Positions 1 through 34,795 of a DNA stretch of 64,000 nt are shown piece by piece; the stretch's first letter is position 1, and every line of letters begins with the position of its first letter. The stretch comes from an uncultured Planctomycetaceae bacterium (GTDB taxonomy: Bacteria; Planctomycetota; Phycisphaerae; SM23-33), in assembly GCA_964607575.1 (NCBI GenBank), contig CAZSLS010000002.1:25304-89303 (forward strand). The letters run 5' to 3'. The translations under genes were made by a program, and so were the position numbers. Under the pieces are notes generated by a model. That model saw only the letters and a program-made list of their open reading frames with translations. It had not been told where the DNA came from and ran no database searches.

Positions 1-1807
1 CAACATCACCACCGTACACGGCCTGTGGACAACAAACCCCGACGGGACCGGCGTGGAGCATTTCTACGGTAACAACACAATCGATCCGAACGTGGTCGTC
101 GAGGCTCGCGCGATTCCAGGCTCGCGGAAGGTGGTGGCCTCTGCCGTCGCGCACCACCGCTACTTCTCGGGGACCGTTATCGTCATAGATCCGTCCAAGG
201 GCGCCGACGGTCTGAAACCGCTGACACGAGTGACGCCCGAGGTCGCCTTCCCCGAGCGGCGCGCACACAGCTACAAGGGCAAACCGCTCAAGCCCGACGA
301 AAACGGTATCTATCCGTACGGTCTGCCCTACAACCTCAGCGACAAGACGCTATTCGCCGCCGGGCCTCACGAGCCCAAGAAAGCATCGGGCCCCTTCGCC
401 ATGCCATTCCCGCTGACAGAAGACCTCTTCCTGGTCGCCCGCATGGAGAAGAAGACCAGGAAGTTCGCGATATACCTGATCGACACGCTCGGCGGGCGAG
501 AACTGATCTACAGCGATCCGAAGAGTTCATGCTGGGCGCCGATCCCGATCCGCCCGCGCAAGAAACCGCCCGTGCGAGCGTCGCTGGTATCGCCCGATCC
601 GAGCGTAAAGGATGGAACGTTCTTCATCCAGGACGTCTACCAAAACCGCTTCGACTCACGCGGCGTGATAAAACGCGGCTCGGTCAAAGCAATGCGAATC
701 ATCCAACTGCTCGACCAACCGGCAGAGCGGGCAATACCGCGAGGACGCGTGCTGTTCGAACTGCCCAAGCGGATCCTCGGCACGGTCCCGGTCGACGCGA
801 ACGGGTCGGTCGCGTTTCGGGCGCCGGCCGGCGTTCCAATGCAACTGCAACTCATAGACGAAAACGCGATGGCTGTGATGACCATGCGATCGTTCGTCTA
901 CCTACATCCGGGCGAGACCGCCAGTTGCGTCGGCTGCCACGAACCAAAGACCACCGCCCCGCCGCCAGCACTGCGCGGCAAGGCCAAAATCCACGACATC
1001 ACCCCCCCGGCGTGGCGGACGTACGAAAAGGGCATGAGTTATAGTCGCACAATCCAACCCGTATTCGACCAATACTGCATCCGCTGCCACGGACTGGATA
1101 AAAATAATCCCATGTCGCTGATCGGCACGCCGCTGACGAAAACCTACAAGCAGACGGGCATATCGACCGATTGGCCCGGAAAGATCACCGTGCCCGCGAC
1201 GCATGGGTACCACAACCTTCTCGCCCGCCCGGGCGCCGTCGTCATCGCGCAAGCGTACAACGAGAACCTCACCAGCAAACCCAAAGACTACTTCGCCCAC
1301 GCGGGCAAACTCGCGAAAATGCTGCTGACCGGACACCCGGACAAGAAGGGCGCCAGTAAAGTTAAACTCGATCCGGCCTCGATGAGGCGGATCATCGACT
1401 GGCTCGACCTCAACGCGCCGTTTGCGGGCATGTATTCCTTCAACCGCCCGGAGAACCGGACCATCGACCCAGCCGGCGAAAAGGCGCTGCGGAAGCACAT
1501 CAAGAAGACGTTCAGCGAAAAACTCGCCGCCCAGCCGATCGCAGCCCTGGTAAACGTCGCCGAACCCGACGCCAGCCGGATACTCATGGCGCCTCTGGCG
1601 AAATCCGCCGGCGGATGGGAGCAGCTCGATCGCGCTTGGGCCTCGGCGGACTCATCCGGCTACAAGACCATGAAGAAGCTGGTCCGCAGCGCGATCGTAT
1701 TCGGCAAGTACAAGGACATCGCCGGCACATGCGGGCGCGGATCCAAAAACAACTGCCTCTGCAAAGCCTGCTGGATCCGCGAAGCGACAACGGCGAAGGG
1801 TAAGTAA
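1..1807 (+). CDS. Secreted beta-propeller/PSCyt-like CxxCH protein, C-terminal part (5' end outside window)
   Basis: The reading frame is open back to nt 2 with no stop. The sequence aligns by eye with the paralogue at 27760..30612 (…WTTNPDGT…EARAIPGSR…IDPSKG… vs …WTMNPDGT…EARAIPGSR…IDPAKG…). It has two CxxCH motifs (CVGCHEPK, CIRCHGLDK). Confidence 0.6.
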   Translation, partial: NITTVHGLWTTNPDGTGVEHFYGNNTIDPNVVVEARAIPGSRKVVASAVAHHRYFSGTVIVIDPSKGADGLKPLTRVTPEVAFPERRAHSYKGKPLKPDENGIYPYGLPYNLSDKTLFAAGPHEPKKASGPFAMPFPLTEDLFLVARMEKKTRKFAIYLIDTLGGRELIYSDPKSSCWAPIPIRPRKKPPVRASLVSPDPSVKDGTFFIQDVYQNRFDSRGVIKRGSVKAMRIIQLLDQPAERAIPRGRVLFELPKRILGTVPVDANGSVAFRAPAGVPMQLQLIDENAMAVMTMRSFVYLHPGETASCVGCHEPKTTAPPPALRGKAKIHDITPPAWRTYEKGMSYSRTIQPVFDQYCIRCHGLDKNNPMSLIGTPLTKTYKQTGISTDWPGKITVPATHGYHNLLARPGAVVIAQAYNENLTSKPKDYFAHAGKLAKMLLTGHPDKKGASKVKLDPASMRRIIDWLDLNAPFAGMYSFNRPENRTIDPAGEKALRKHIKKTFSEKLAAQPIAALVNVAEPDASRILMAPLAKSAGGWEQLDRAWASADSSGYKTMKKLVRSAIVFGKYKDIAGTCGRGSKNNCLCKACWIREATTAKGK

Positions 1808-1877
1808 AGCACCCAAAAACAATTGCAACTCGGCCACAAGCCCGTGTAGCAAGTTTTGTCGCAAGTTTGTCGCAAGT

Positions 1878-7923: not shown

Positions 7924-10900
7924 TCAGTCCATACAGACGACCTTCCCGTTCTTCAGCGAGATGAAGAGTTGCCCGTAGGCTGCCGCTGCGCCGTCGAATA
8001 CCGGGTCGGATTCGAGTTTGTATTGGCCTGTGCGCTTGCCGTCGTCCACGGAATATACCTGCAGGACCGACTCGTGCGGGTCGGGGTCGCCGGGGCTCTT
8101 GGGTCGGCCGGTTTTTAGCTCTATCGCCATCGAATCGAGCCAGCCGGCCAGGAATAACTTCTTCCCGGCCAGGACCATTGCGCGGGGTTGGATCATCTCT
8201 TCGATTGACCATGATGTGGCTGCCGGTCCCCTGGCGGATTTCTTTTTCCCGACGGCTGATATCTTCGAGCCGAATACGAAGAAGTCCTTCTCGTAGCGCG
8301 TGAATTTCTGGTGGAGGTGCCCGTCCTGCTTGTACTTCTCAGCCTGGGATTTACGGATGTGCTTCAGCCTCGTGTAGGGATTGCCCACGCCGACGGTGAC
8401 GCCGTCGTTGTAGGCGACGAGTTGTCCGGCGACCTTCCGGTACTTCCAGCCCTTGCGATGGAACCACGTGCTGTCGAGCAGTCCGGTAGATGAGACAATC
8501 GTCCCACCTCCCTTCCCGCCGGGGCGAAGAGTCTTGCTCATGCGCATCTCGCGCATCGCAATCGTGTTTCCATCCGATATTAGAACATCGACCAAGGCGC
8601 CCTTGCCCTTGCGATCCTTGCCCCAATAGCCTGACGCCACGATGCGACTATACTTCTGCTCGCCCGTCCAGACGTCCAGGCCGTACAGGCGAATACCGCC
8701 GTCGAGGAACGATGAGCGCCCCGCGGCGAAATAGGCGACGTCTTCCATTATCAGCACGCTTCCGCTGACGGCCAGCGGAGATTCGAGCCGATTGCCCGAA
8801 CCCACGCGGCGCTCCACGGCGGAAACTTTGAACCGCCAGCCGAGCCGCCCGTCGGCCGCATTGAGGCAGTAGACCGATCCATCACTACACCCGACAATAC
8901 ACAGGCCCTTGTATATGGTGGGCGGGGAATCGATCGGACCGGCGGCCAGGAATTTCCATTTCACTTTACCGTCTGCTCGGGCGAGGCAGTGGACGGTGTA
9001 AGCATCCTTTTGGGCGACGAATACCTTGTCGCCGGCGATCACCGGGGCGGTGAGGTTGTCGCCGAGTTTGGCCTCCCATTTCCGCTTGAGCTTGTCGCCC
9101 AGTTCGCACTTGGCTGACCCGCTGCGCGAGATACCGCCCCGATAGGTCGGCCAGCCGTCTTTTGAAAACAGGACATCGGGCGATGGAGAGTCTTTTCGCC
9201 CTGACACATCTGTCCAGGCGGAGCCCTTCTCCAACGCCGGGACAATCTTGACCTCGTCGGCGGAACTGCTCTCCATGAGTGCGAAGAAACCGTTGATCCG
9301 CATGCTGTTGTAGCATTGGCAGGGGTCCGGCGGCACGTAGATGTAACCGTTGGCGGGCATGATTCCGTATTGGCAAATTCCGCGGACCCACTGGTTCGTC
9401 GCATTCTTTTTGGTCTTCACATCGACCAGTTGTATACCGCTATGCCCGATCAGAACGTACTTTTCGGTGGCCTTGTTGCGGTAGCAGCGATGGTGATGCT
9501 GGTTGCGGACGAATGGCAGTTCGTCGGTGATCTCCCCGGTGTTGATATCGACACCGACGCCGGTCTTGGCCTGCTTGAGGAAGTTCTCGCCGGGTATGTT
9601 AATGCCCGTGGTGACCATGCCCTTCTTGTTGGTCCTGCTCTTTCGCCAGATGCTCTTTCGCATCGGGGCGGTCCAGGCCTTGTCGCCAATGACGAACAGG
9701 TCGCCGGGCGAGCCGAAGCCGATCGACCCCTTGTTTTCCCAGAGTTTCTTCCCATCCTTGACCGCAAACCCGTGCAGGCGATTCCAGGTCAGGCACATGA
9801 TAACGTCGTCGCGGACGACAACCGTCGGGGCGTAGCTGCGGATGAACTGGCCTTCGGTTTTGAACTCAGAGGCCCATTGCTGCTTGCCGCTTTCGGCGCT
9901 GAGGCAGTGGAGCTGCTCGCTGTCCAGATAGAACACTTTGTCGCCCCGGGCACACAGCGACAGCGGGGTAATACGTTTGAGATTCTCACCGTCGGCGGAC
10001 CAGAGTTTCTTACCGGTCTTGGCGTCGTATGCGACTATCGACTTGTCGATGAGGGCCTTTTCGTGGACGGCCAGTTGCCAGTATCCGAAGCATTTGTCGG
10101 ACTTGGCGATCAGTATGTTCGGATCGCCTTTGACCACGAGTAGCATACCGTCGTGGTAGATGAGCTCTTCGGCCTTGTCCGAGCCGGGGTAGGTCGCCAG
10201 CGTCTTGCCCGTCGCGGCGTCGAGCTTCACTGCAGGGGCGGTCAAGCCGAGCGTCACGTAGACACTGTCGCCGACGGAGACTAAGCGGCGCGGGAGCTGC
10301 TTGGGCCCGGCGCGAAAGTTGTACAGGTGCGTCATCCAGGTTGGAATATCGCGCTTCCAGAGCAGTTTCCCGTTGAAAGCGTCGCGGGCGATGAGCTTCC
10401 AGTCCGGCGGGCGGTGGACCACGGAGATCGATCCTTCATCGTAGATGTAGAACAGTCGCCCGTTGCTGGAGGTCATGGCGCTGAGGCTGGCCAGCGCGTC
10501 GTGATGACGGGCGTGTTTGGGCGGGGCCCACCATTGCAGGCGGCGGGGATGCCCGACCTTCCTGTCCCTGCTGACCGCGTTGCCCGAGGCGTCGTAGAGG
10601 AAATGCGTCCACTGGTCGATATCCTCGGGCCAGGGCTTTGTGTACTCGGTCCATCCGCCGATCTGCCCGGTCTTCTTTAGGCCGGATGTTTTCAGCAGCG
10701 CCGAATCAGACTTGATCAGCACCACGCCCCGGGGAGTGAGTACTCGCTCGATTTCCTTGGCGGTCAGCTTCGCGGGGGCTTCGATCAGGAGCAGGTTGAC
10801 GATATTGTCGCCGTGCGGCAGGTTCTTACCATCGTACCGCTCGGCGGAAACCTTACCGTACAGACCGAGCGAGTCAATGTGCTTTTGGGCTCTTGCGACG

Positions 10901-11115: not shown

Positions 11116-11316
11116 CTCGTGTCTCCAGGACCGATGAGGGCATCTGCGGGAGGTAATTTCCAGTTCAAGAATACCAACAACCGCACCGCTAAAACAAGCA
11201 CCGAAACGCGCCGCCGGCCGGTCCGTTGGCGGTTGCGTGCGGATGGAGGGTGTGGTACTTTGCCCGTCGAGGCGCGGCGTGTGAGGCGCCACCGCCACTG
11301 CTATCGGAGAATTGCG

Positions 11317-14028: not shown

Positions 14029-14053
14029 CCGCCCCACCGCCTTACCATATAAC

Positions 14054-18068: not shown

Positions 18069-19100
18069 TCAGGCTTCTTTTGCGAAGAATTCCCCGATCG
18101 CAGCCACCAGGGTATCGATGTTTTCGCCGGTAACGTCCAGATGGGTCACGATGCGAATCATCGGTCCCCCGAGCATTTTCCCGCCGAGGATCAGAATGTC
18201 CCGCTCGGCGAGAAAGCCCACCAGGCGGTCCACTACGTCGTGAGACATTGACGCGAACACCATGTTTGTCTGGACGGCGTCGTGATCGACAGATATTCCG
18301 TCGATGTCGCTCAAACCCTCAGCCAGTCTGGCGGCGTTGGCATGATCTTCGGCGAGACGCTCGACGTGCTGCTGAAGTGCGATGATACCGGCCGCGGCCA
18401 ATATACCCGCCTGACGCATACCGCCCCCAAGCACTTTCCGCCATCTGCGAGCCTCCTTGGCAAGCGGTTTGGTCGTACACAGCAGCGAACCGACCGGGGC
18501 GCCGAGCCCTTTCGACAGGCAGATCGAGACCGAGTCGAAGTGGCGTGCAATGTCGGCAACCGGGGCGGCAAGTTTGACCGCCGCGTTGAACACCCGCGCC
18601 CCGTCGAGGTGTATCGCCAGTCCGCGGTCCCGCGTGAAGGCTTCGGCCCGGGCGAGATACTCCATCGGCAGCGCGATCCCCCTGTGCGTGTTCTCGAGGC
18701 AGAGCAGTCGCGTGCGCGCGAAATGGAAATCGTCGGGCTTGACGACATGGGCAACCTTGTCGAGGTCCAGCGTACCGTCGGGCTCGAATCCCAGCGGTTG
18801 TGGCTGGATGCTTCCCAGTACAGCCGCCCCACCGCCTTCGTATTTATAGGTGTGAGCGTGCTGTCCGACGATGTACTCATCGCCCCTCTGGCAGTGCGCC
18901 AGTACGCCGATAAGGTTGCTCTGCGTACCGCTGGGCGCGAAGACGGCGGCTTCTTTGCCCAGCATCTCAGCCGCCAGAGATTCCAGGCGGTTGACCGTCG
19001 GGTCTTCGCCGTAAACGTCGTCGCCAACTTCAGCCCGGGCCATCGCATCTCGCATCGCCGCGGTGGGCTTGGTTACCGTGTCGCTTCGCAGATCAATCAT
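18069..19100 (-). CDS. ltaE: Low-specificity L-threonine aldolase (PLP-dependent)
   Basis: MIDLRSDTVTKPT… is the canonical N-terminus. …GTQSNL…, the lysine context …ICLSKGLGAPVGS… and overall colinearity support the call. The start is set at MIDLRS rather than the longer ORF. Confidence 0.8.
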   Translation of the reverse strand: MIDLRSDTVTKPTAAMRDAMARAEVGDDVYGEDPTVNRLESLAAEMLGKEAAVFAPSGTQSNLIGVLAHCQRGDEYIVGQHAHTYKYEGGGAAVLGSIQPQPLGFEPDGTLDLDKVAHVVKPDDFHFARTRLLCLENTHRGIALPMEYLARAEAFTRDRGLAIHLDGARVFNAAVKLAAPVADIARHFDSVSICLSKGLGAPVGSLLCTTKPLAKEARRWRKVLGGGMRQAGILAAAGIIALQQHVERLAEDHANAARLAEGLSDIDGISVDHDAVQTNMVFASMSHDVVDRLVGFLAERDILILGGKMLGGPMIRIVTHLDVTGENIDTLVAAIGEFFAKEA

Positions 19101-19109
19101 TGTTTTTTT

Positions 19110-19220
19110 AGCCACGGATGAACACGGATAAACGGCAGGATTTTTTGTAACGGCAACGACCGGCATGTCGTAGCCCTTACAAAGAATCTTATCCGTGTTC
19201 ATCCGTGTTCATCCGTGGCT
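19110..19220. repeat. Perfect 20-bp inverted repeat (AGCCACGGATGAACACGGAT / ATCCGTGTTCATCCGTGGCT) with a 71-nt spacer, plus a tandem ATCCGTGTTC direct repeat
   Basis: The arms at 19110-19129 and 19201-19220 are exact reverse complements. The right arm is preceded by a direct duplication of ATCCGTGTTC (19191-19210). The element lies between the ltaE start (19100) and the stop of the upstream gene (19235). Confidence 0.7.
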
Positions 19221-19234: not shown

Positions 19235-22159
19235 CTAGTAAACCCTTCCGAAGTTTCGCTGCTGGGGGATCGCCTTTGCGCCTGGCATGTCGATTCTCGG
19301 ATAGGCGAGGAGGGAGGCTTTCGCTTCCTTGAGGACTTTGAGTATGGCCTGATAATCGGGATCTTTGGTGGATTTGAATCTTGCCTTGTCGTTTTCGGCC
19401 GCGCCGCCTGCCGATTTGGCCAGCAGGCCCACGAAGCCCGGTGTCCACTGCGGATTGGTGAAGTTCAGGTTTCTTGCGTCTATGCGCACCTTTTTCTCGG
19501 CGCAGATCTTCTTCAGCCTGTTGACCCATGGAGCGGGTTTGGGGCGTCCCTTTCCGTCGGGCGGTGGAACGGTAGTCGCATCCCGCCCGCCCACCGAATA
19601 CGGACGCGACATGTCCCACGTGCTGTAGTAAGGCACGTTGGCGTCGATCCAGGCGTAGATGCGGCGACGGCCTTGGTCGTCAACATTCACCAACTCGTGC
19701 TTCTCGCTGGTGGACCGGTGTTTCGACTCGATGATCTTCGTCAGCCTGCTGACCCACGAACCGGTCCCGAACGCCGGGAAGTTGCCCGTCGGTCCGGGAT
19801 TGATGTAGTAGTATGCGACGTAATTCCTGAACACCAGCGACTGGTACGACATCGAGTAGAACTGCGTCTTGTCGCCCGACAGGTCGATACCCTTGGCGGG
19901 CGTCGCGCCCGAATGACACTTGATGCAGTGCTTGTCCAGAACGGGCTGGACCTGCTTAACGTAGTCGACCGGTCCGGCGCCCCATGCCGGCGGTGTGATC
20001 TTGTCCGGCGGTTTGGACATGCGTTTCATGTTCGTCGGATTCACCGGTGAGGGCTTGAGGCGATCTTCGTGACATCCGATGCAGGATGCCTGCTCGCCGG
20101 TTGTGATCTGGGTGACCGAACCCATCCTGATTATCTCTTTACCGTTTTCGTCGAGAGCCTCGAAGTAGATCTCCGTGTTCGAGGGCACTTTGAAGAAGGC
20201 AGCCCCGCTTTCGGCGACCGGAACGGTACCGAGATTGATCTTCACGTAATAGCTGCCCTGCCCGATGATCGGGTAATGGTCGTGGTAGCGAGGCCCCTCG
20301 GTGTTGTATTTCTTGGGCGATTGGGCCAGGATCCTCAGGCGCTTGACCTGCCCGCGTTTGACGCCCTGGCGCAGCAGGCCCTGGTAGACGTCCTGGACGA
20401 AGAACGTGCCCTCGCCGGGCTCCTGGGGACACTGTCCGGGGATGATATTGGGCACGGGGCGCTTGCTAAGGGGTACGGCGTTGAAGCACTGCAGGGTCAG
20501 GTCCTTGTACAGGGGCACGACCAAACCGTCGTGCTTGAGAAACGCGATATGATACCGACCCGTTCGCCCGTCAGACACCAGTGAGTAATCCGTGGTTACC
20601 GGATACGGGTCGGTGAACGAGTTGCGATACAACCGATCGCCCGGAGCCCAGTTCGTATGCTTCCAGTCCCTACCGACGGTGACCCTGTATGGCGTGGCGT
20701 TGGTGATCTTGGTCATGCCCTTGGGGTTCTCCACGCCCAGTGATCGGTCGACGATTGCAATGTCGCCCAGTGGCGGGTGGTGGTGGGCGGCCATCGTCAG
20801 GATCACCTTCTTCGTACCCGGTATCTCCTTGGCGCCGTAAACGGAATTGGGCACGGTCAGTGTATTACCGTGATACAGTTTGAGCTGGCGACCGTTGGGG
20901 TTGATCGTCCAGAGACCTTCCCACATGAAGATGTTCTTGTCCTGATACTCCCACCGCGTGCAGAGGATCGAACCGTCAGCCAGGACCGCTGGCGAGAGCG
21001 TACACAGGGTAGTCCAGTCGAACCGGCGCATGTTGGACCCGTCAGCGTTGATAACGTACAGGGCACATGCCAGGAAATTCTGGCAGAGCGAGAATGATTC
21101 GACGCGCGAGGAGGTGAATATGATCCGCCCGTCGCCGTAGTAGACCGGGCTCACATCGTGGAACGGGCCCTTGGTCAGTTGGCGCATACCCGTACCGTCG
21201 ACGTTGATCTCCCAGATATGGAACGGGAGGTTTGTCTTCTCCTTGTACGAGAACACGAGCTTCTTACCGTCAAACGACGGGTTCATGTCGAAGATGAAGC
21301 CCTCCTTGGTTTCAAAGATGACTTTCGGCGCAATGTCCGGTCTGGCTGGATTATACGTGCAGATCGCCGCCCCTTTCCCTGTTCTGCGGGCAAACATCGT
21401 GGCGTTCGTACCGCTCATTCCGTAATTCTGCCGCTTGATGAACGCGATCGGCGGGCAATCCCTGGCGAGTTTGGCGGCTGCGACCCGCTCGGCGGCGATC
21501 TTGGCTTTCTCGGCGGGCGTAAGCCCCGCCTCGATGAATAACTTCATATCAGGGCTGTGGTTTACGCGCTTGGTGCGGTACAACATTTTACCCTCGGGCG
21601 TAGTTACCCGGATGTTTTTGAACTGCACCTGCGTGGACCAACTGCCCAGACCGATACCGCCGGTCTTGTGGCGATGATTCGTAGCAGTATGGATGAGTTT
21701 CCCGTTGAGGTAGCACTTGATGGACGATCCGGCGACCTTGACGCCAATGCGATACCACGTTCCATTCTTGATCGAACCCCTGACCCTCGGGAATCCGCCC
21801 CTGCTCCGCCCGCGCTCGATCGACTCGATTGCATGACCGGTGTTACGCCATCCGCCGACGTTCCACCAGTAGAAGTTGTTCTTGTCTTCCGCTCGGAAGA
21901 TGACAAGGAAACCTTCGGTCCCGCTGATCCTGCGGGCCTCGAGTTCGTAGGTGTAGTCGGTCCACTTGGTGAATTTAGCAAAGGAGCGACAGTCCATTGC
22001 CTTTTCGAGTTGTGCGAAGACATTGTCTATGTGGACCCACCGCCCCTTGGTGGGAGTCCAGTCCTTAAACGACTGGTTGACATCCGCGGCTGATACTACC
22101 GAAGCGGTCGACACAAGCGCGACCGCCATTATCACTACACGTCGCAAACTACTGAACAT
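19235..22159 (-). CDS. Secreted paralogue: DUF1080-like jelly-roll N-domain, PD40/TolB-like beta-propeller, two CxxCH (PSCyt-like) motifs
   Basis: Signal peptide MFSSLRRVVIMAVALVSTASVVSA is present, with GAGGA 8 nt upstream. The N-terminus …FYWWNVGGW…IRV is DUF1080/LamG-like. The C-terminus has CIGCHEDRL and CIKCHSG. The protein aligns with 27760..30612. Confidence 0.6.
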   Translation of the reverse strand: MFSSLRRVVIMAVALVSTASVVSAADVNQSFKDWTPTKGRWVHIDNVFAQLEKAMDCRSFAKFTKWTDYTYELEARRISGTEGFLVIFRAEDKNNFYWWNVGGWRNTGHAIESIERGRSRGGFPRVRGSIKNGTWYRIGVKVAGSSIKCYLNGKLIHTATNHRHKTGGIGLGSWSTQVQFKNIRVTTPEGKMLYRTKRVNHSPDMKLFIEAGLTPAEKAKIAAERVAAAKLARDCPPIAFIKRQNYGMSGTNATMFARRTGKGAAICTYNPARPDIAPKVIFETKEGFIFDMNPSFDGKKLVFSYKEKTNLPFHIWEINVDGTGMRQLTKGPFHDVSPVYYGDGRIIFTSSRVESFSLCQNFLACALYVINADGSNMRRFDWTTLCTLSPAVLADGSILCTRWEYQDKNIFMWEGLWTINPNGRQLKLYHGNTLTVPNSVYGAKEIPGTKKVILTMAAHHHPPLGDIAIVDRSLGVENPKGMTKITNATPYRVTVGRDWKHTNWAPGDRLYRNSFTDPYPVTTDYSLVSDGRTGRYHIAFLKHDGLVVPLYKDLTLQCFNAVPLSKRPVPNIIPGQCPQEPGEGTFFVQDVYQGLLRQGVKRGQVKRLRILAQSPKKYNTEGPRYHDHYPIIGQGSYYVKINLGTVPVAESGAAFFKVPSNTEIYFEALDENGKEIIRMGSVTQITTGEQASCIGCHEDRLKPSPVNPTNMKRMSKPPDKITPPAWGAGPVDYVKQVQPVLDKHCIKCHSGATPAKGIDLSGDKTQFYSMSYQSLVFRNYVAYYYINPGPTGNFPAFGTGSWVSRLTKIIESKHRSTSEKHELVNVDDQGRRRIYAWIDANVPYYSTWDMSRPYSVGGRDATTVPPPDGKGRPKPAPWVNRLKKICAEKKVRIDARNLNFTNPQWTPGFVGLLAKSAGGAAENDKARFKSTKDPDYQAILKVLKEAKASLLAYPRIDMPGAKAIPQQRNFGRVY

Positions 22160-22205: not shown

Positions 22206-23129
22206 CTACCTTAACGCGGGACCGGGCAGGGGCTTGCCTTTTTCGTCAAGAAGCTGGACGCCCATCATGTGTCTGTCTCCCGCCACATAACGCCATACAA
22301 GTTTCTTATCGCGGGTGATCTCGAGCAGGCTGGCGCCATCGACGCCCTTTACGGCGGCGTAGATGCCCATCACGATATTACCGTTGGGCTGCACGTGAAT
22401 ACCGCATATCATACCGATCTTGACGTCCTTGAACTCTTTCCTGTCGAACTGCCAGACCACTTTGCCTTTGGGGTCAAATTCGGTGATGAAGTTGATATGC
22501 CCGACAACGGTATTCCCGTTGGGCAGGCGGACGGCGGAAAATGCGATCGGCTTGGTCTTGACCTCGAAGACCACCTTGCCCGTCGGGGTATACTCGCGGA
22601 CCATCGCTTTGGCTTTGTAGGCGACCAGGTAGTTTCCGTTGGCCAGTTTGCGAACGTGTCGCAGGTTGTTGTGGCTTCCAGGCTTGCAGTCTGGGAGTTT
22701 CAGTTCAAATACGATCTTGCCCTTGGGGTCGACCTCGACGATCCTGCCGGCGGAGTTCTCGCCGACCATCGTGTTCCCGTTTTTCAGACGCTGGCAGGCG
22801 AACGTACCGCCGCCCTTCTGCATCTCAGGCTTGTAGCTCCAGACGACCTTGTCGCTCTTCGGGTCGACCTCGATAACGTTATTGTCGGCCAGCAGGATAT
22901 TCCCGTTCTTCAGCATCCAGATATCCGAGCAATTTCCGCCCTTGTGCTTCCAGAGTATCTTCCCGGTATTGTCCAGCAGCACCATCCTACCGGTACCGGT
23001 CGCCAGGACTTGGCCTTTAAGGGTTCCGTGGATGGCCTTGCTCTCAACCGCCTCGGCGCCGTTGAGCGACGTCAGGGCGACAATCGACAACAGAACCGCC
23101 GGCAGGACGACAAAAGCTGGTTTCCGCAT
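22206..23129 (-). CDS. Secreted six-bladed-type beta-propeller protein (repeated 'NGN-hydrophobic … KGK(I/V)VW' blades)
   Basis: The start is set at MRKPAFVVLPAVLLSIVALTSLNGAEA, with GGAG 7 nt upstream. Repeats include NGNILLADNN…KVVWSY, NGNTMVGEN…KIVFEL, NGNYLVAY…KVVFEV, NGNTVVGH…KVVWQF and NGNIVMG. Confidence 0.5.
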   Translation of the reverse strand: MRKPAFVVLPAVLLSIVALTSLNGAEAVESKAIHGTLKGQVLATGTGRMVLLDNTGKILWKHKGGNCSDIWMLKNGNILLADNNVIEVDPKSDKVVWSYKPEMQKGGGTFACQRLKNGNTMVGENSAGRIVEVDPKGKIVFELKLPDCKPGSHNNLRHVRKLANGNYLVAYKAKAMVREYTPTGKVVFEVKTKPIAFSAVRLPNGNTVVGHINFITEFDPKGKVVWQFDRKEFKDVKIGMICGIHVQPNGNIVMGIYAAVKGVDGASLLEITRDKKLVWRYVAGDRHMMGVQLLDEKGKPLPGPALR

Positions 23130-23390: not shown

Positions 23391-23496
23391 GTTTTGTGTC
23401 GGTTCGGTCATACTCGATGCTCAACTCAATTCGCTGTTTGTATTAGAAGTCCCGAATCATCTCGCATATGATGCGTTCAACCAATGAGGCAGATTA

Positions 23497-25026: not shown

Positions 25027-25033
25027 AAAGGAT

Positions 25034-27759: not shown

Positions 27760-30612
27760 ATGAGAAATGCTACAAGACTATGGCTCTTGGTATTGATCCT
27801 GTGCGCCATGAGCTTTACCGCCCTGCCGGCTGCATACGCCGCCGAGGCCATCACGCCCGAAGGCCAAGCCCTCCTCGAAGCCGATTGGCTCACGCAGTGC
27901 GGTAAGAAACCGTCGGCAAAGCTCATAACCGACGAGATCAAATGGGCTCGCGAACTGGCTGTACGCATCTTGAAGATCAAGGGCGCTCAGTCGCTGAAGG
28001 TTCATCTCGACAAGCTCACGCAACTCGAGAAGAAAGTCGCCGGAGCCAAGACCGCCGAGGCGATCAAGAAACTCTACTTCGAGGTCCGAACCGCCAAGCG
28101 GGCGATCATGTTCGCCAATCCGCTCGTCAATTTCGATAAAATCGTCCTGATCGACAACCCGTTTCCCAACGGTAAACCGGGCGACGCGACGAACGAATGG
28201 CGACACGAAGCGCGACACCGCAACGGTTATATGGCCGTCATGGGCGGAAAGCTCATCTCGGTCGGTCTCAATCCGGGCGGTAAGGTCAAGAGCCTCTTCG
28301 GCGATCGCGTCGGGAGTTTCTGGCGCCCCGACGTCCACTTCGATGGAAAGAAGATCGTCGTCAGCTTCCAACCGCGAGGACACAAGTCTTTCCATCTTTA
28401 CCAGGTCGACTCGGAAGGCAAAGAAGTCAAGCAGCTCACGTTCGGCGATTATGACGATCTCGATCCGGTCTACACGCCGGACAATCACATTACCTTCTGC
28501 TCGTCGCGAGCGCACACCTACGTCCGCTGCATGCCGATGACCCATGCCTACGCCGTCTCCCGCTGCGACGCCGACGGAAAGAACATCTACGTCGTTTCGC
28601 GAAACGGCGAGGCCGAGTACATGGCCTCGGTCCTGAACGACGGTCGCGTGATCTACACCCGCTGGGAGTACACCGAAAAAGCGCTCTGGCGAATCCAGAG
28701 CCTCTGGACGATGAACCCCGACGGTACAAACGTGCAGACGTTCTGGGGCAACCAGTCCCGCTGGCCTGACGTGCTGACCGAAGCGCGGGCGATCCCCGGT
28801 TCGCGTCGCATTATGTTCACCGGACTGGGGCACCATGACTGGTTCAACGGGGCGCTGGGGATCATCGACCCGGCCAAGGGCCTGAACTACCCCAACGGGC
28901 TTACGAAGGTCACCCCGGATGTCCGCTGGACGGAAGTAGGCGACGGACCGGCGGAGAAAACCGAATCGAAAACCTACCACAGTTGCAAGGCCTTCCGCGC
29001 CTACAAGACGCCCTACCCGCTTAGCGAGGAGGATTTCCTCTGCTCGGCGATCGTCAGCGGTGGGAACCGGTTCCAGCTTTACCTGATGGACGTTCACGGA
29101 AACCGCGAGCTGATCCACAAAGGCACGCACAACGCCTACTACGCCATGCCGTTGAAGGCCCGAAAGGCCCCGCCGGCGATCCCCGACCGGGTCAAGTGGC
29201 CGAAGATCGGATCGAACGAAACGCCCGCCCCCGGCGTCCTGTACAGTAACGACGTGTTCAACAACGCCCCGGAGATACTCAAGGGCAAGGGCAAGTACAT
29301 CCGAACGCTGGTGATGGACCCGAAGAACTACACGACATGGCACAAGACGGTCCAGCACGACGGACCGGCGATCAGCGTATTCCAGGCCGACGGCGTCAAG
29401 CGGATACTCGGAACCACGCCGATCGAAAAAGACGGTAGCATCTGCATGGAAATCCCGCCGGGCATCGCCGTGTTCTTCCAGATGCTCGACGAGAAGAAGC
29501 AGTGCATCCACGTCATGCGTTCGTTCACCGGCGTTATGCCCGGCGAGATGCGAGGCTGCTTCGGATGTCATGAGTCCAAGCTCTCAACACGCGGAAACCC
29601 GAGCGCCGGTTCCAACAGCATCGCGATGCGCAAGGGCCCCAAAAAGCCGGTCCCGCCGCCCTGGGGCGCCAACACGACTATCAGCTACGCTCGCTTCGTC
29701 CAGCCCGTACTCGACAAGCACTGCGCCAAGTGCCACCAGGACCCCAAGCACAAAGCGTTCAAGAAGCTGAACATGACCTACCGCCCGTCGAAGCATCGCT
29801 TCCGCAGCCGAGTGCATACCCGCCCCGGCGAGACCAGCCCGTTCACTGAACCGTACTACACGCTCGTGGGCGGCGGATGCGGCTGGGGTAACGGCCGCAA
29901 GAAGAAGACGCTGTCCGGCGTATACATCGTCGAGTCGTACAACGACAGGAAGGGCAAAGGAACGGATATGAAAACGCTTCCGCCCTACTCGGCGTTCTCG
30001 CCGATCAGCACACTGATCAAGAACGCCTCGAGCGGCAAGCATAACAAGATGAAGATCCCCGCCGCTGATCTCGAAAAACTTGTCGCCTGGGTCGACTCCA
30101 ACGGTCCGTACCTCGGCGACGAAGAGATTCGCAAGATGTACGATCCGTTCTCGTTCGCCGCGGAGAACATCTCAGCCGTCCGCCCGCGAGTGGCCACGGC
30201 GCCCGTCATCAACCGCTTCAACATTCGCCAGGACGGCGACTCGATGAAGGTATCTGGTCCGCTCAAGCTGTCCAAGAGCATCGAGGCCGACAGGAAGAAA
30301 ATGGCCGAGAAGAAGAAAGCCCAGATCGAAGCCGCCAAGCGTCGCGCCGAGGCGATGAAAGACCTGAAAGTCGGAAAGGTCGAGATCATCAGCGCCAAAT
30401 ACGGCGCCGGGTCGACCTGGAAAGATGTGACCAAACTGGTCCAGGCCCGCGCCGGTAAGAGTCGCCTGGTCCCGATCGGCGGGTACAACGCAGCGTTCGG
30501 CGACCCGGTCAGCGGCACGAAGAAAACCCTGAAGATCGAGTACAAGATCGACGGCAAGAGCGGCAAGGACGAGTTCGCCGAAGACGCCGAGGTCATCCTC
30601 ACGACGAAATAA
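27760..30612 (+). CDS. Secreted paralogue: PD40/TolB-like beta-propeller with two CxxCH (PSCyt-like) motifs
   Basis: Signal MRNATRLWLLVLILCAMSFTALPAAYA is present. …GKKIVVSFQ…YQVD.EGK…, CFGCHESKL and CAKCHQDPK are present. A C-terminal …AKYGAGSTWKDVT…FGDP.SGTKKTLKIEY… mini-domain follows. Confidence 0.6.
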   Translation: MRNATRLWLLVLILCAMSFTALPAAYAAEAITPEGQALLEADWLTQCGKKPSAKLITDEIKWARELAVRILKIKGAQSLKVHLDKLTQLEKKVAGAKTAEAIKKLYFEVRTAKRAIMFANPLVNFDKIVLIDNPFPNGKPGDATNEWRHEARHRNGYMAVMGGKLISVGLNPGGKVKSLFGDRVGSFWRPDVHFDGKKIVVSFQPRGHKSFHLYQVDSEGKEVKQLTFGDYDDLDPVYTPDNHITFCSSRAHTYVRCMPMTHAYAVSRCDADGKNIYVVSRNGEAEYMASVLNDGRVIYTRWEYTEKALWRIQSLWTMNPDGTNVQTFWGNQSRWPDVLTEARAIPGSRRIMFTGLGHHDWFNGALGIIDPAKGLNYPNGLTKVTPDVRWTEVGDGPAEKTESKTYHSCKAFRAYKTPYPLSEEDFLCSAIVSGGNRFQLYLMDVHGNRELIHKGTHNAYYAMPLKARKAPPAIPDRVKWPKIGSNETPAPGVLYSNDVFNNAPEILKGKGKYIRTLVMDPKNYTTWHKTVQHDGPAISVFQADGVKRILGTTPIEKDGSICMEIPPGIAVFFQMLDEKKQCIHVMRSFTGVMPGEMRGCFGCHESKLSTRGNPSAGSNSIAMRKGPKKPVPPPWGANTTISYARFVQPVLDKHCAKCHQDPKHKAFKKLNMTYRPSKHRFRSRVHTRPGETSPFTEPYYTLVGGGCGWGNGRKKKTLSGVYIVESYNDRKGKGTDMKTLPPYSAFSPISTLIKNASSGKHNKMKIPAADLEKLVAWVDSNGPYLGDEEIRKMYDPFSFAAENISAVRPRVATAPVINRFNIRQDGDSMKVSGPLKLSKSIEADRKKMAEKKKAQIEAAKRRAEAMKDLKVGKVEIISAKYGAGSTWKDVTKLVQARAGKSRLVPIGGYNAAFGDPVSGTKKTLKIEYKIDGKSGKDEFAEDAEVILTTK

Positions 30613-30742
30613 GGGCCTGCCGAGCCCTCCCGAAACGCCGAGTAAGCCCCCCCGACTGCGGGGGGGCTTCTTGGGTTTTCTGCACCGATTGAACCGGCTT
30701 GATGTTCCATAAGAATCCGCATTGACCGAAAGAAGAAGGCAG

Positions 30743-33700
30743 ATGAAGAATTCATCAAAGTTCGTAATAATCGCCGTCACCCTGCTGATGCTGCTTGCCG
30801 CCGGTACGGTCTCCGCCGCCGCGAAACCGCCGACCTTCAGCGGAGCCAACTGGATATGGCACAAGGGCGTCGGCCAGGCCGCGGGCACGTGGTATTTCCA
30901 GAAGGGTATGGCGTTCCCCGCCGGTCAGAAGCCCAAGAAGGCTCATGTTCTCATCACCTGCGACAACCTATGGACGCTGCATGTCAACGGCAAGCAGGTC
31001 GGGCGGAACGACTCGACCGCCGATTCATGGCAGCGCCCCCAAAGCCTCGATGTCGCCAAGCATCTGGTGATCGAGAAGAACGCGATTGCGATTGCAGGCA
31101 CAAACACTGCCCCCGGGCCGTCGGGGCTTCTGGTCAAGCTGGTCGTTGAATTCGAAGACGTCAAGAAGACGTTCGAACTTGTCAGCGACAAGACCTGGAT
31201 CAGCTCATCGAAACCGACCACAGGTTGGAAGGACAACGGTTTTACCGCCGGGCCCGACTGGACGCCTGTCACCGTTGTCGGCGCTTACGGTTCGGCGCCC
31301 TGGGGCAAGCTGGACGGTTCGGCTCGCAGACCGCGAGGCGCTCGGAAACCCGCTCCTTTGCCCGCCGTTCTAGCCGACAAAGAGGAACTCAAGAAACCGA
31401 TCTACAAAGACGGCGTGGTTTTTGTCGGTAGTGCAGTCGGTCTGAACGTGAACCGTCAACCGATCTATCATCAGAACATACGCGGCACGCGCGCATATTT
31501 TGAAATGGACCCGATGACCCCCGCGGCTTTGGGGCGCCAGCTTTGGAGCCTTATACCGCTCGGGCCCGACGGCAAGAAGACGTTGCTGTGCGACGCCGGT
31601 CAGGGAACGGTGGGCTCGCCGAGCGTTTCCTTTGACGGTAAGACGGTCTACTTCACGAAGGTCAAGCCCGGCGAAGCCTTCTTCCATATCTACAAGATCG
31701 ACATGACCGCAAAGGGCGATGCCGCCCCGGGCGGCGAAAAAAGCGTCGTGCAGCTCACCGACGGACCGTTCCACGATTACGATCCGATGGAACTGCCCGA
31801 CGGGCGCATCGCCTTCAGTTCCACTCGCATCGGAAGCCGCGAGGAGTACCATGGGAAATATGCCTCCTCACTCTGGACATACGATCCGAAGAGTAAGAAG
31901 ATTCGTCCGCTGACTTACCACATTGTCGCCGACCGCGAACCGCGCGTCACGTCCGACGGGCAGTTGGCGTTTATTCGGTCCGACAATTTCCTCGAGCGTG
32001 CAAAAGTCGAAGCACATCTGCACCAGACGCGAATGGACGGTACGGCGGGGCAGGTCATTATCGGGCCTGGGCGCAAAGGCGTTCGGCTCGATCGCGATGT
32101 CGCCGCTGAGCCCGCGATGAACTGGCTCCGCAGATACGGTATTGGCAGCCCGGCGCCGATGCCTGACGGGCGGGTGGCCGCAATCAACCAGAGAGGTCTC
32201 GTCACGTCGGCGACGGCTACGGGACTGGATGTCGGAGGCGGATTCCTGCCGTTCGACCTGTCGCCTTTGCCCGACAGTCGGTTGTTATGCACCGCCAGAG
32301 CAAAGAATCAGATCATAGTTTTCGACCCGAAGGACAAGAGTCAAAAGGGTGTCTTCTCGATGAACGGTATTCATTCGGTGGTTCACCTCGGCGCTCGCAA
32401 GAAACCGTCGGTCATGCCCTCAATGGTGGACCCCGCGATCGAACGCAGCATTAGCAAGACGGGTTTTCTGTACTGTCAGAACGTCCTGAACACCCAGCAC
32501 ACTTCCGCCGACACAAAACGCATCAAGGCTATCCGAGTTTACGAAGGGCGACCGTTTACGATCGAGCCGACCAAGGCCATCTATGTCCACATCGGAACCG
32601 TCGGTATTGAGTTGGGGACCGTACCGCTGGCGAGCGACGGTTCGTTCTATATTGAAGTCCCCGCAGACCGCCCGCTGGCACTGCAGGCGATCGACGGCGA
32701 GGGACGAGCGGTCATCAACGAGCTGTCGTGGATTTACACCCGCCCGGGCGAACAGAGGGCGTGCGTGGGTTGTCACGCCCCGGTCGACGCCGCTCCGAGC
32801 ATGACGCCGGCCAAGGCGATGAGAAGCAGACCGCTGAAGCTGACCGGGCAGGGCGCCCCGCACCGCTTCAGGGCCAACAACGGCGCCAACGGCGGAATCG
32901 TAAACCTGCAACTGGACAAGTTCCGCGAGGTTGTCGGGATAAACCTCAATACCGTTCCGAATGATGCGAGCCTCTCGACGATTCGTCGACTGGGAATACT
33001 CCGCAACCGATCGTCGATCCCGATTCTGGTAAAGGCGCTGGGCGACAAGAGCCCCGAGATGCGCTGCGCCGCGGCGCTTTCGCTTTCGGCGTGCGGTAAT
33101 CGCGATGCGATCAAGCCGCTTATGATATCGCTGAAAGACACAAATCCCACCGTGGCACGCGCCGCGGCCTGTGCGCTGGAGCATCTGACGGGCAACCCCG
33201 CCGGCGGGACCGATTTCTACGCGATTGAAAAGGCCCTGATTGGCAAGATCTCGCCGGAGAATCAGCTTACCGGGACGGCGGCGCCGGTCAAAAAGAGAGC
33301 TCCGAAGATCATTATCAAGTCGGCGCTTTACGGCGTCAAGGGCAAGCCCTCCAGGCAGGTTGATCTGACAAAGAAGATCAGCAAGCGGGTTGCCGCCGGG
33401 AAGTTCACGTTTAGCGCGAGTCACAAGTTCGCAGGCAAGGATCCCGCCCCGGGTATCAACAAGACAACGGAGCTTGAATATTCCATCAACGGGAAGCTCA
33501 AGAAAGCCTCGCTCAGAGAGGGCGCCGAGTTTGATCTGGTCCTGGGCAACATAGCGGGGCCCGGCTCGGTCAGCAGCAAAAGCGGGCAGGAAATCCACAT
33601 GGCGATTGAGGCTCTGGGTCACGTGGGCGGTAATGCGGGCAAGAAGGCAATTCGTGATTGGCTGGCGAGCAATCCCAAGGGCGAACTCCGGATGCTGATG

Positions 33701-34795
33701 GCGGCGATACGCTCACTCGGTTATCTGCAGGACCGCCAGGCGATACCCGACCTCGTGGCGATCATGAATGCTAATCTGAATAAGCGCGGAAAGGGCGGTT
33801 GGAATGAAGGGGGTTTCAACCAGAAGCCGACGTATCTGTGCGCTACGGCCGCCGAGGCACTCGGCAGGATCGGCGGAGCCGAAGTGGAAAAAGCGATTCT
33901 GGCGGCGCTGGCGAAACTGGGCAATTTCGAGTTGCAGGTAATGCGCACCGGCGAGCACGGATGGTTGAGAAGCGCCCAGGCCTCGCCGGGCTACTTCCGG
34001 ATGCTCGAGGCGCTGGAACGCATGGGAAGCAAAGCCGGCGGCGAATTGGCCGGGCCGATCGTGATCTCGATTCCGGTGGACAAGGACCGCGGACTGCTGT
34101 ACGAACTGGACAGTTATGAAAAGCTGGTCGGGCGGACGGTCAAACGCATCGGGCAGATGGACAACGTTGTTGAAGCGTGTTTCGCGGTACTGGACAAGAC
34201 GTCGAAAGCGGCGGTCGACCCCAAGTTGAAGGCCGCGGTATCAAAAGCCCCGCACAACGAGCGCCATATCAGGAGGCTTTCGGCCCAGTCGCGGGCGGCG
34301 CAGGTTATGTCGGTTGTGTGCATGGACCTGAAGTACGCCGACAGGATCAGAAAAGTGCTGAAGACCTACCGGGCCGACAAACCGTCGGAAACCCGCGCAT
34401 GGACTTGCTTCATGCTGACGCGAACCCTCGGGCGGATCGGCGATACCGGATCGATCGACCTGTTCGTAGAGATGCTGACAAAGGATCCTACGGAAACCGC
34501 GCTGGGCCTGAACCCGCCGCCAACCCACATTATCTACAAGGCCTGGCGACCATTCTATCGCCCCGCCGCCGCATGGTCTCTCGGACGGCTCAAAGCCAAG
34601 AAGGCTACCGGCGCTTTGCTCAAGGCGGTGCAGGAATTGGAAAATGCGTCGAGCACGCGCCAGGAATCCGCGATAGCACTCGGGATGATCGCCGACAAGA
34701 CCACCCTGGCCGAACTGAAGAAGATCGCCGAAGAATACCCCGAACTCATGACCAGACGATCGCTCCTGGAGGCAATCGCGAAGATGTCGAAGTAG
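30743..34795 (+). CDS. Secreted paralogue: N-terminal jelly-roll-like domain, PD40-type propeller, one CxxCH motif, then HEAT/armadillo repeats
   Basis: The start is set at MKNSSKFVIIAV…, with GAAGGCAG upstream. CVGCHAPVD is present. HEAT-like repeats run …SIPILVKALGDKSPEMRCAAALSL…AIKPLMISLKDTNPTVARAAACAL… onward. It shares the …LYGVKGK…DLTKK…ELEYSINGK… mini-domain with 27760..30612. Confidence 0.6.
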   Translation: MKNSSKFVIIAVTLLMLLAAGTVSAAAKPPTFSGANWIWHKGVGQAAGTWYFQKGMAFPAGQKPKKAHVLITCDNLWTLHVNGKQVGRNDSTADSWQRPQSLDVAKHLVIEKNAIAIAGTNTAPGPSGLLVKLVVEFEDVKKTFELVSDKTWISSSKPTTGWKDNGFTAGPDWTPVTVVGAYGSAPWGKLDGSARRPRGARKPAPLPAVLADKEELKKPIYKDGVVFVGSAVGLNVNRQPIYHQNIRGTRAYFEMDPMTPAALGRQLWSLIPLGPDGKKTLLCDAGQGTVGSPSVSFDGKTVYFTKVKPGEAFFHIYKIDMTAKGDAAPGGEKSVVQLTDGPFHDYDPMELPDGRIAFSSTRIGSREEYHGKYASSLWTYDPKSKKIRPLTYHIVADREPRVTSDGQLAFIRSDNFLERAKVEAHLHQTRMDGTAGQVIIGPGRKGVRLDRDVAAEPAMNWLRRYGIGSPAPMPDGRVAAINQRGLVTSATATGLDVGGGFLPFDLSPLPDSRLLCTARAKNQIIVFDPKDKSQKGVFSMNGIHSVVHLGARKKPSVMPSMVDPAIERSISKTGFLYCQNVLNTQHTSADTKRIKAIRVYEGRPFTIEPTKAIYVHIGTVGIELGTVPLASDGSFYIEVPADRPLALQAIDGEGRAVINELSWIYTRPGEQRACVGCHAPVDAAPSMTPAKAMRSRPLKLTGQGAPHRFRANNGANGGIVNLQLDKFREVVGINLNTVPNDASLSTIRRLGILRNRSSIPILVKALGDKSPEMRCAAALSLSACGNRDAIKPLMISLKDTNPTVARAAACALEHLTGNPAGGTDFYAIEKALIGKISPENQLTGTAAPVKKRAPKIIIKSALYGVKGKPSRQVDLTKKISKRVAAGKFTFSASHKFAGKDPAPGINKTTELEYSINGKLKKASLREGAEFDLVLGNIAGPGSVSSKSGQEIHMAIEALGHVGGNAGKKAIRDWLASNPKGELRMLMAAIRSLGYLQDRQAIPDLVAIMNANLNKRGKGGWNEGGFNQKPTYLCATAAEALGRIGGAEVEKAILAALAKLGNFELQVMRTGEHGWLRSAQASPGYFRMLEALERMGSKAGGELAGPIVISIPVDKDRGLLYELDSYEKLVGRTVKRIGQMDNVVEACFAVLDKTSKAAVDPKLKAAVSKAPHNERHIRRLSAQSRAAQVMSVVCMDLKYADRIRKVLKTYRADKPSETRAWTCFMLTRTLGRIGDTGSIDLFVEMLTKDPTETALGLNPPPTHIIYKAWRPFYRPAAAWSLGRLKAKKATGALLKAVQELENASSTRQESAIALGMIADKTTLAELKKIAEEYPELMTRRSLLEAIAKMSK

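Follow-up and report, generated by a model that had tools for sequence, protein, structure and literature searches.

What do four long open reading frames (ORFs), named A, B, C and D here, encode in a stretch of DNA from a marine Phycisphaerae metagenome-assembled genome (MAG)? The stretch is 64,000 nt long and is called the window below. The public record names the four products 'hypothetical' (A and C), 'DUF1080 domain-containing' (B) and 'HEAT repeat domain-containing' (D), and an earlier reading of the sequence alone (the original prediction) had described them as a paralogous family of giant secreted propeller proteins with PSCyt-like CxxCH motifs, actively diversifying through duplication and domain swaps. 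The answer that we favour, with moderate confidence, is that A to D are exported, glycan-targeted haem proteins, probably redox enzymes, and that they are ancient paralogues related to HzsA, the alpha subunit of hydrazine synthase (HZS-alpha). The ORFs and their CxxCH strings were found exactly as described (Table 1), although 'giant' is an overstatement for proteins of 886 to 1350 aa.

All six pairwise BLASTP comparisons of A to D were significant (E 7e-16 to 3e-67, 23-35% identity). Because these values extend over 144-687 aligned residues, the sequence similarity is not low-complexity matching, and the four genes are homologous paralogues, as had been proposed. An alignment of all four spans the propeller, the middle domain and the first CxxCH. 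Each protein matched PF18582, the hydrazine synthase alpha subunit middle domain, with 76.7 (A), 67.4 (B), 75.9 (C) and 62.9 (D) bits against a gathering cut-off of 26.6, and the end of this domain is the first CxxCH in each of them. The predicted PD40/TolB-like propeller core was weak by Pfam and clear by fold. The only meaningful sequence match in the PDB was 5c2v_A, which is HZS-alpha of Kuenenia stuttgartiensis (HzsA, 5C2V chain A), hit in colinear segments that run from the propeller through the CxxCH-bearing middle domain to the second CxxCH; with a profile of C homologues, five such segments were matched (E 4e-20). The AlphaFold2 model of C (predicted local distance difference test score, pLDDT, 86.6; predicted template modelling score, pTM, 0.83) had 5c2v_A as its best match (Foldseek E 7e-25, 823 columns), as did the model of D residues 1-760 (pLDDT 78, Foldseek E 1.4e-21), and TolB propellers were the next structural matches for C (E about 1e-11) and for D. 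While the structure models cover C and D residues 1-760, A and B align full-length with C. Taken together, the sequence and model data place A to D, as anciently diverged paralogues, in the HzsA-related family PF18582, and suggest exported haem-propeller proteins. They are new members of an already named family and not a new family, since 'HzsA-related protein' is the name that NCBI already gives to some relatives.

The label 'PSCyt-like' did not stand. An hmmscan of A to D at E<=0.1 returned no PSCyt1, PSCyt2 or PSD1 model (PF07635, PF07583, PF07587), and the same models do mark true members in locus L004; the signature that A to D have in common is PF18582, and the closest structure is HZS-alpha. 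PSCyt1/PSCyt2/PSD1 proteins (DUF1549/DUF1553) resemble A to D in being exported proteins of the Planctomycetota-Verrucomicrobiota-Chlamydiota (PVC) group with an N-terminal CxxCH of similar local sequence, and they are present in the same genomes, for example adjoining a D-type gene in L004. They differ in having an architecture of their own, with neither a propeller nor an HZS_alpha domain. If A to D were such planctomycete cytochromes, recently duplicated and shuffled in this genome, one could account for the haem-II motif (QPVLDKHCxKCH and then Gly- and Lys-rich residues), which by eye resembles the PSCyt1 motif, for the tandem arrangement of C and D, and for the variable presence of a lectin-like module among close D orthologues (see below). 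The Pfam result and the age of the paralogues refute this explanation, to which we give very little credence: the paralogues share 23-35% identity, their orthologues occur in other PVC lineages, and gene order is conserved.

That age was read from orthologues at 45-66% identity, which each paralogue has in Kiritimatiellia, Lentisphaerae, Verrucomicrobia or Planctomycetia. Orthologues of B reach 66% identity in Kiritimatiellia and 54-55% in Lentisphaeraceae and Verrucomicrobia, an orthologue of C reaches 45% in Kiritimatiellae, and relatives of A reach 45-50% in Verrucomicrobiota and Planctomycetota. Since the paralogues within the window are only 23-35% identical, while orthologues in other PVC lineages reach 45-66%, the identities indicate that the duplications are old. 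Local gene order was also conserved when synteny was checked in related MAGs, and the form of D with one haem and HEAT repeats is a stable subfamily (120/120 homologues), so that the loss of haem II and the gain of HEAT repeats are fixed. The idea of a family actively diversifying through duplication was therefore mostly not borne out.

We then examined the CxxCH motifs. The four proteins contain seven, against 0.015 expected from their amino-acid composition; over all 91 long stop-free stretches of the window 0.29 would be expected, and the seven observed all lie in A to D. In all frames of the 64 kb, the remaining stop-free stretches of 200 aa or more carry none. The motifs of A to D occupy aligned columns: the first, called haem I here, is present in all four, and the second (haem II), in the C-terminal cytochrome c domain, is present in A, B and C and missing from D. 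The motifs are kept in orthologues, as the original prediction implied. Exactly two CxxCH, 51-59 residues apart, were found in 120/120 of the closest C homologues, and exactly one in 120/120 D homologues. The 148 best family representatives comprise 104 with two motifs, 38 with three, 1 with four and 5 with none or one; at least two are thus present in 143/148 of these divergent sequences. One protein, P0241 (1774 aa), holds two complete HzsA-related cores in tandem, with four CxxCH. Sec-type signal peptides could be read by sequence inspection at the N-termini of full-length A, B, C and D, so that both hallmarks of c-type cytochromes, CxxCH motifs and Sec-type export, are present. Because the CxxCH motifs are conserved in the family, haem binding by A to D is likely, in agreement with the proposed exported haem-propeller proteins.

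Conservation extends into the propeller. Among 135 divergent representatives, C-x-G-C-H stood at the haem-I position in every one. The invariant or near-invariant residues (B numbering) are R352, C359, R402-W403-x-Y405, L416-W417 and H459-H460 in the propeller, and, further on, M679, G688-E689, C693-x-G-C-H-E698, Q738-P739 and C745-x-x-C-H749. The propeller Arg, Cys, Trp and Tyr were present in 135/135 and the His-His pair in 119-123/135. The near-invariant Met lies 14 residues ahead of haem I and, with the Cys and the His-His pair, is a candidate axial ligand of haem I. A His about 16 residues ahead of a W-x-D motif (130/135) is, by analogy with HZS, a candidate distal ligand of a bis-His haem II. 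The whole set is present in A, B and C. D, in addition to missing haem II, swaps out the Cys, Trp, Tyr, Trp, His-His, Met and Glu (Y369, S413, N415, H427, gap, E660, A679), and the D subfamily shows many invariant residues of its own, which suggests that D changed function rather than decayed.

Because HZS-alpha is the top sequence and fold match of the family, we asked whether A to D could themselves be hydrazine synthase alpha subunits, which would imply a cryptic anammox-like nitrogen metabolism in a Phycisphaerae bacterium. The order of domains is shared: HZS-alpha consists of a PD40-type propeller, a middle domain ending in a CxxCH (haem alpha-I) and a class-I cytochrome c domain with a second CxxCH, whose haem alpha-II motif Q-P-x-L-D-x-x-C-x-x-C-H has its counterpart in the second CxxCH of A, B and C. 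The PF18582 matches and the 5C2V_A fold match speak for this identity, as does the occurrence of hzsA-like genes with adjacent hzsBC-like genes in other Phycisphaerae (PMC10732223). The defining features, however, refute it. In the structural alignment identity is 14-17%, and the NCBIfam HzsA equivalog NF052339 scored 31-49 bits for A to D against a cut-off of 800. In HZS-alpha the iron of haem alpha-I is ligated by Tyr591, four residues past the CxxCH His (CSGCHYGSY), and that His binds a zinc ion instead (PMC12607021, PMC12758564). The residues from the haem-I His onward are HEPKT, HEDRL, HESKL and HAPVD in A to D, against HYGSY in 5c2v_A; no Tyr stands at +4 in any of them, and canonical His ligation would be expected. 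No other long ORF in the 64 kb bears a CxxCH, and the window thus encodes neither a dihaem gamma nor a beta-gamma partner. For the Zn site that the CxxCH His forms with Cys303 of HZS-alpha, a profile of the propeller segment, aimed at aligning the His-His pair with Cys303, did not recover 5c2v_A and so yielded no equivalent position to compare. Neighbouring propeller proteins had no sequence similarity to HZS-beta (5c2v chain B) and were rejected as its equivalents. Finally, 7 to at least 14 copies per related genome fit poorly with a single core enzyme. Further differences from HZS-alpha are the added lectin-like and HEAT modules, the missing haem II of D, and a host that is not an anammox bacterium. 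We regard a hydrazine synthase identity as hardly credible.

Previous genomic work agrees. Phycisphaerae UBA1845 carries hzsA-like genes, for which a broader enzyme family with other substrates was proposed (PMC10732223, 2023), and Hagglund et al. 2025 (PMC12758564) sorted HzsA homologues of non-anammox bacteria into clades I-IV; both studies conclude that the non-anammox homologues are not hydrazine synthases. Like A to D, these are PF18582 proteins in Planctomycetota including Phycisphaerae, they are without Tyr591, and some are without haem alpha-II, which is missing in clades II and III (PMC12758564) and so is not universal. The non-anammox homologues of those studies are also without the Zn-binding Cys. 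Unlike A to D, which have no such partner in the 64 kb, the genes studied there adjoin a fused beta-gamma homologue and often an FG-GAP/CRTAC1 gene, the latter in clades I-III (PMC12758564). The window has an FG-GAP repeat gene, 25034-26275 (+), between B and C; it is adjacent to none of the four paralogues. We also noted a B-type member (L010, JADHXT010000163.1; 58% identity to B) in a MAG labelled Candidatus Brocadiia, the class containing anammox bacteria.

The four proteins differ at their ends, as had been predicted. B has the DUF1080 domain, with weak matches to the levanase CBM66 module (carbohydrate-binding module, CBM; 4azz_A, E 0.003). C has a C-terminal lectin-like module, and D, the member described as having lost the second CxxCH and gained HEAT repeats, indeed has one CxxCH and a HEAT region, together with a CBM67-like N-domain and a lectin-like insert (Table 1). 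The N-domain of D also matched the structures 3w5m (E 9e-15) and the Pleurotus ostreatus lectin 6kc2_A (27% identity, root-mean-square deviation 2.1 A over 166 columns). The insert of D is homologous to the C-terminal module of C (BLASTP, 34% identity, E 1.6e-5). The profile of this C/D module, which matches SUEL-type lectins, also matches latrophilin lectin domains. Animal SUEL-type lectins carry disulfide cysteines, and our reading of the sequence finds these missing from the C/D module.

Across the family, variable end modules are the rule, and the notion of domain swaps stands to that extent. Ahead of the core, the N-terminal extension has a median length of 292 aa, and 32/148 representatives extend by 100 aa or more at the C-terminus. 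In 42 representatives with long extensions, the extra Pfam domains were NPCBM (6), Laminin_G_3 (5), F5/8 type C (3), NedA-like galactose-binding (2) and Mala_s_1-like (2), with single cases of Golvesin_C, DUF642, CE2_N, Fucosidase_C, DUF1080 and FIST. Relatives of the A type carry discoidin or Glyco_hydro_2_N domains, and those of the D type Bac_rhamnosid_N. By these matches, the end modules are overwhelmingly lectin- or CBM-like. The lectin module was present in 114/120 C-type homologues and in 35/120 D-type homologues, all of them close to D, and some D orthologues that are about 80% identical over the aligned N-terminal ~60% of D are without it, which is one concrete, comparatively recent gain or loss of a module.

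From these observations we propose the following working model. The core common to all four comprises a PD40/TolB-like propeller and, behind it, a beta-rich middle domain with the predicted haem-c site C-x-G-C-H (haem I) at its end. A, B and C continue with a cytochrome c domain of class-I type, which bears the haem-II motif and a conserved candidate distal His. Haem I and the family-invariant propeller residues (Arg, Cys, Arg-Trp-x-Tyr, His-His) may together form a ligand-binding or catalytic pocket, which by analogy would correspond to the haem alpha-I site of HZS-alpha; the strict invariance of the propeller residues argues for a defined pocket of that kind. The conserved unit would be propeller, middle domain and haem I, which are retained where haem II is lost (D, and clades II/III of PMC12758564), and haem II would be a separable, surface, bis-His module for electron exchange. 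The ends would steer the paralogues to different glycans through DUF1080/CBM66-like (B), SUEL-like (C) and CBM67-like plus SUEL-like (D) modules. The family's hosts include Phycisphaerae, Kiritimatiellia, Victivallales, Draconibacterium, Sunxiuqinia and Chitinispirillaceae. These taxa are polysaccharide degraders, which, together with end modules that are lectin- or CBM-like, suggests that the proteins are targeted to glycans. D represents an old subfamily that has dispensed with haem II and most of the putative pocket residues, has an invariant set of its own and has gained a HEAT scaffold; its role is probably another one, which may be non-redox or may require a partner.

Cytochrome cd1 nitrite reductase and quinohaemoprotein alcohol dehydrogenase offer a comparison: their active site is built by a periplasmic propeller, and electrons are exchanged through an attached class-I cytochrome c domain. 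The likeness is an analogy of function only: there is no relation in sequence or cofactor, A to D have no d1 haem or pyrroloquinoline quinone (PQQ) site, and their haem lies in a separate middle domain.

Several points weigh against the proposed enzymes. The Met ahead of haem I could make it a six-coordinate electron carrier and not a catalytic site. In HZS-alpha, haem alpha-II is surface-exposed, and its distance to the other haems is too great for electrons to pass efficiently (PMC12607021); coupling between haem I and haem II in A to C is therefore not to be assumed. Lectin-like modules can also serve adhesion rather than substrate targeting. A literature search for functional data on HzsA-like proteins returned only the genomic studies PMC10732223 and PMC12758564. 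The genes around distant C- and D-type homologues include no conserved partner, and sulfatase and Gfo/Idh/MocA neighbours were not enriched over a rough estimate of their genomic density; a reading of function from gene neighbourhood was rejected on these grounds.

Some of these points would suit electron-transfer cytochromes without a catalytic site of their own, acting as redox partners of periplasmic dehydrogenases such as the Gfo/Idh/MocA enzyme encoded beside D, a glycoside-3-dehydrogenase-like protein with a signal for twin-arginine translocation (TAT). Haem II does lie in a class-I-type cytochrome c segment with a weak Cytochrome_CBB3 match, and the near-invariant Met precedes haem I; the enzyme at 34846-36216, with its TAT signal, best matches the BT_2158-family glycoside 3-dehydrogenase, B bears a 3-keto-disaccharide-hydrolase-type domain, and Gfo/Idh/MocA genes occur near other family members. 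A carrier, however, needs no 400-aa propeller with residues invariant in 135/135 representatives, Gfo/Idh/MocA genes are found in about 11/82 loci, which is roughly the estimated density, and D retains haem I yet lost haem II. We consider pure electron carriers an unlikely explanation.

Non-redox periplasmic binding or scaffold proteins, TolB- or adhesin-like, with a haem that is structural or a redox or gas sensor, would in turn fit the TolB/PD40 propellers as next-best structural matches, the HEAT scaffold of D, the lectin-like modules that are common in adhesins, and the neighbourhoods in which no conserved enzyme partner was found. TolB and the other PD40, S9 and tricorn peptidase propellers do share the fold with A to D, and some homologues give faint PF26549 Tricorn_N matches. 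Those proteins, however, are without haem domains, A to D are without a peptidase domain, and TolB is without the invariant Arg/Cys, RWxY and His-His set. Strict conservation of both CxxCH and of the candidate distal His, over thousands of divergent sequences, also argues against this reading, and the only characterised relative is a subunit of an enzyme, hydrazine synthase. This possibility seems to us as doubtful as that of the electron carriers, and we retain exported, glycan-targeted haem proteins, probably with redox activity, as the reading that best accounts for A to D.

The extent of the family was estimated with a profile built from the four paralogues. Among 1.84 billion cluster representatives (clusters at 50% identity), it matched 2,211 proteins with E<=1e-30 and 7,415 with E<=1e-10. 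Of the 148 representatives, 37 are A-like, 69 B-like and 42 C-like, and the D type is a separate subfamily with hosts in Phycisphaerae, Kiritimatiellae and Verrucomicrobiae. Copies per genome were counted by a pattern-limited scan, which gives lower bounds: Phycisphaerales co234_bin25 has at least 11 family loci and 3 more on L001, three other MAGs have at least nine, seven and six, and the source MAG has at least a fifth member, QGH60_15820. More than one member lay within about 8 kb in 17/82 fetched loci.

By itself, this locus adds members to a family already named. Three aspects of the family were not found in the literature searched, namely its size, its multi-copy, partner-less organisation and its systematic association with lectin-like modules. 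The earlier survey targeted genes co-located with beta-gamma homologues and called alpha homologues few (PMC12758564). That view is altered by three results: with 2,211 clusters at E<=1e-30 the family of the alpha-like scaffold is very large, genomes of non-anammox bacteria hold many copies of it, and it mostly stands without a beta-gamma partner and mostly joined to lectin- or CBM-like modules. The family is thus a concrete candidate for the ancestral stock of HZS-alpha, the origin of hydrazine synthase being debated, and its strictly conserved propeller residues are a testable set. For glycobiology, it represents abundant, unstudied exported haem proteins in marine and gut polysaccharide degraders. 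We would also entertain, as a speculation with the odds well against it, that the whole family is a very large class of haem-dependent, CBM-targeted enzymes that act in the periplasm of polysaccharide-degrading anaerobes of the PVC group and the Bacteroidota, on glycans or on substrates derived from them, with the lectin module of each paralogue setting its specificity and HZS-alpha a late, specialised offshoot.

Table 1. Positions of the four paralogues, their domains and motifs, and selected neighbouring features in the window.
Feature	Position	Strand	Remarks
A (3' part)	2..1807	+	Last 601 codons of 886-aa MDP6544487.1, cut by the window's left edge; order: signal peptide, helical N-region, propeller, HZS_alpha middle domain, two CxxCH (minimal architecture)
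A haem-I CVGCH	926..940	+	Ends HZS_alpha middle domain; family-wide C-x-G-C-H-E motif
A haem-II CIRCH	1076..1090	+	Within QPVFDQYCIRCH; weak Cytochrome_CBB3 match
Pyridoxal phosphate (PLP)-dependent aldolase, GntG / low-specificity threonine aldolase type	18069..19202	-	497 bits; 32 nt downstream of B
B	19235..22159	-	974 aa, MDP6544500.1; order: signal peptide, DUF1080 domain, propeller, HZS_alpha middle domain, two CxxCH
B haem-II CIKCH	19913..19927	-	Aligned to HZS-alpha haem alpha-II motif
B HZS_alpha middle domain	20066..20353	-	Ends in haem-I motif CIGCH
B haem-I CIGCH	20069..20083	-	End of middle domain
B propeller segment with R352, C359, R402-W403-x-Y405, L416-W417, H459-H460	20780..21106	-	Conserved in 119-135/135 representatives
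B N-terminal DUF1080 / 3-keto-disaccharide-hydrolase-type ConA-like domain	21602..22072	-	PF06439, residues 30-186, 45.3 bits vs 26.8, E 1.3e-11
Mala_s_1-like six-bladed propeller gene, secreted	22206..23129	-	PF22701 E 1e-17; ORF open to 23342
C	27760..30612	+	950 aa, MDP6544505.1; order: signal peptide, helical N-domain, propeller, HZS_alpha middle domain, two CxxCH, long helix, C-terminal lectin-like module
C haem-I CFGCH	29557..29571	+	Motif scan
C haem-II CAKCH	29722..29736	+	Motif scan
C C-terminal SUEL-type (L-rhamnose-binding) lectin-like module	30376..30603	+	Module profile vs 5h4s_A E 4e-14, CSL3 E 1.5e-8
Terminator-like hairpin, C/D spacer	30644..30679	+	11-bp stem, 9 G-C pairs, T-rich tail; begins 32 nt past C stop
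D	30743..34795	+	1350 aa, MDP6544506.1; order: signal peptide, CBM67-like domain, divergent propeller, HZS_alpha middle domain with single CxxCH, HEAT repeats with inserted lectin-like module
D N-terminal beta-sandwich, rhamnosidase CBM67-like	30815..31321	+	NF041573, residues 25-193, E 6e-25
D single CxxCH CVGCH	32762..32776	+	Haem-I position
D HEAT-repeat region, in place of haem-II domain	32978..34690	+	PF13646 E 4.6e-27; PF03130; PF13513
D SUEL-type lectin-like module within HEAT region	33305..33541	+	E 1.4e-11 vs C-module profile
Gfo/Idh/MocA oxidoreductase, TAT signal	34846..36216	+	Directly downstream of D; best NCBIfam match BT_2158-family glycoside 3-dehydrogenase, 285 bits vs cut-off 750

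C and D are directly tandem, as the original prediction had it, with a spacer of 130 nt. Because a strong terminator-like hairpin lies between them, the two genes are probably transcribed separately despite this layout. The tandem and its downstream genes recur in a Phycisphaerales MAG (L001), and a C-type gene followed by a D-type gene was also found in a Kiritimatiellae contig (L084), the first of the two having 45% identity to C. L004 and L083 do not have the tandem. Of the metagenome D-type loci, 41 reach far enough upstream to be judged, among them D orthologues at 77-87% identity, and in none of these does a C orthologue precede D. On these grounds, and in view of the hairpin, we rejected the idea that C and D are an obligate pair.

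The Mala_s_1-like gene lies directly upstream of B with a 46-nt spacer, and no terminator-like site was found in the spacers of 46 and 32 nt that flank B. In six divergent representatives, an HzsA-related core and a Mala_s_1-like domain form one protein by fusion, and Mala_s_1-like genes adjoin HzsA-like genes in loci L005-L007, L022 and L024; hosts with such neighbours include Pontiellaceae and Sunxiuqinia. Such fusions and adjacency point to a functional link between Mala_s_1-like and HzsA-related proteins, and the gene is a probable operon partner of B. Its product has a repeated NGN motif, and its best PDB match is the uncharacterised 3no2_A. Three Phycisphaerae MAGs have the same succession of genes, in which the Mala_s_1-like gene and B are followed by the PLP aldolase and two Cys-rich proteins. 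The two Cys-rich proteins, 14750-16495 (-) and 16417-17817 (-), are paralogues (about 46% identity). Each has a hydrophobic segment at its N-terminus and a helical region, and its final ~140 residues contain ten CxxC motifs, which recalls a DnaJ-type zinc finger. Neither protein matches a family model, and both are conserved downstream of the B operon in four related MAGs.

Elsewhere in the window, the ORF 7924-11634 (-) encodes a 1236-aa protein with PQQ_2/BamB-like propeller repeats and a domain resembling S-adenosylmethionine (SAM)-dependent methyltransferases; paralogues of it adjoin HzsA-like genes in L008, L028, L069 and L080, and it has no sequence similarity to HZS-beta. The region 37894-44729 (+) contains URO-D-family, HlyD-like, GAF+HlyD and PqqD+peptidase-M50-like genes, which follow a D orthologue in the same order in L001, where an AbiEi/AbiEii pair and a hydrolase stand in place of the window's Gfo/Idh/MocA and PQQ_2 genes. 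Two ORFs on opposite strands, 23494-25041 (-) and 23497-25026 (+), are nearly coextensive; only the plus-strand ORF matches a family (sulfatase, E 1e-59), and the minus-strand one is a shadow ORF.

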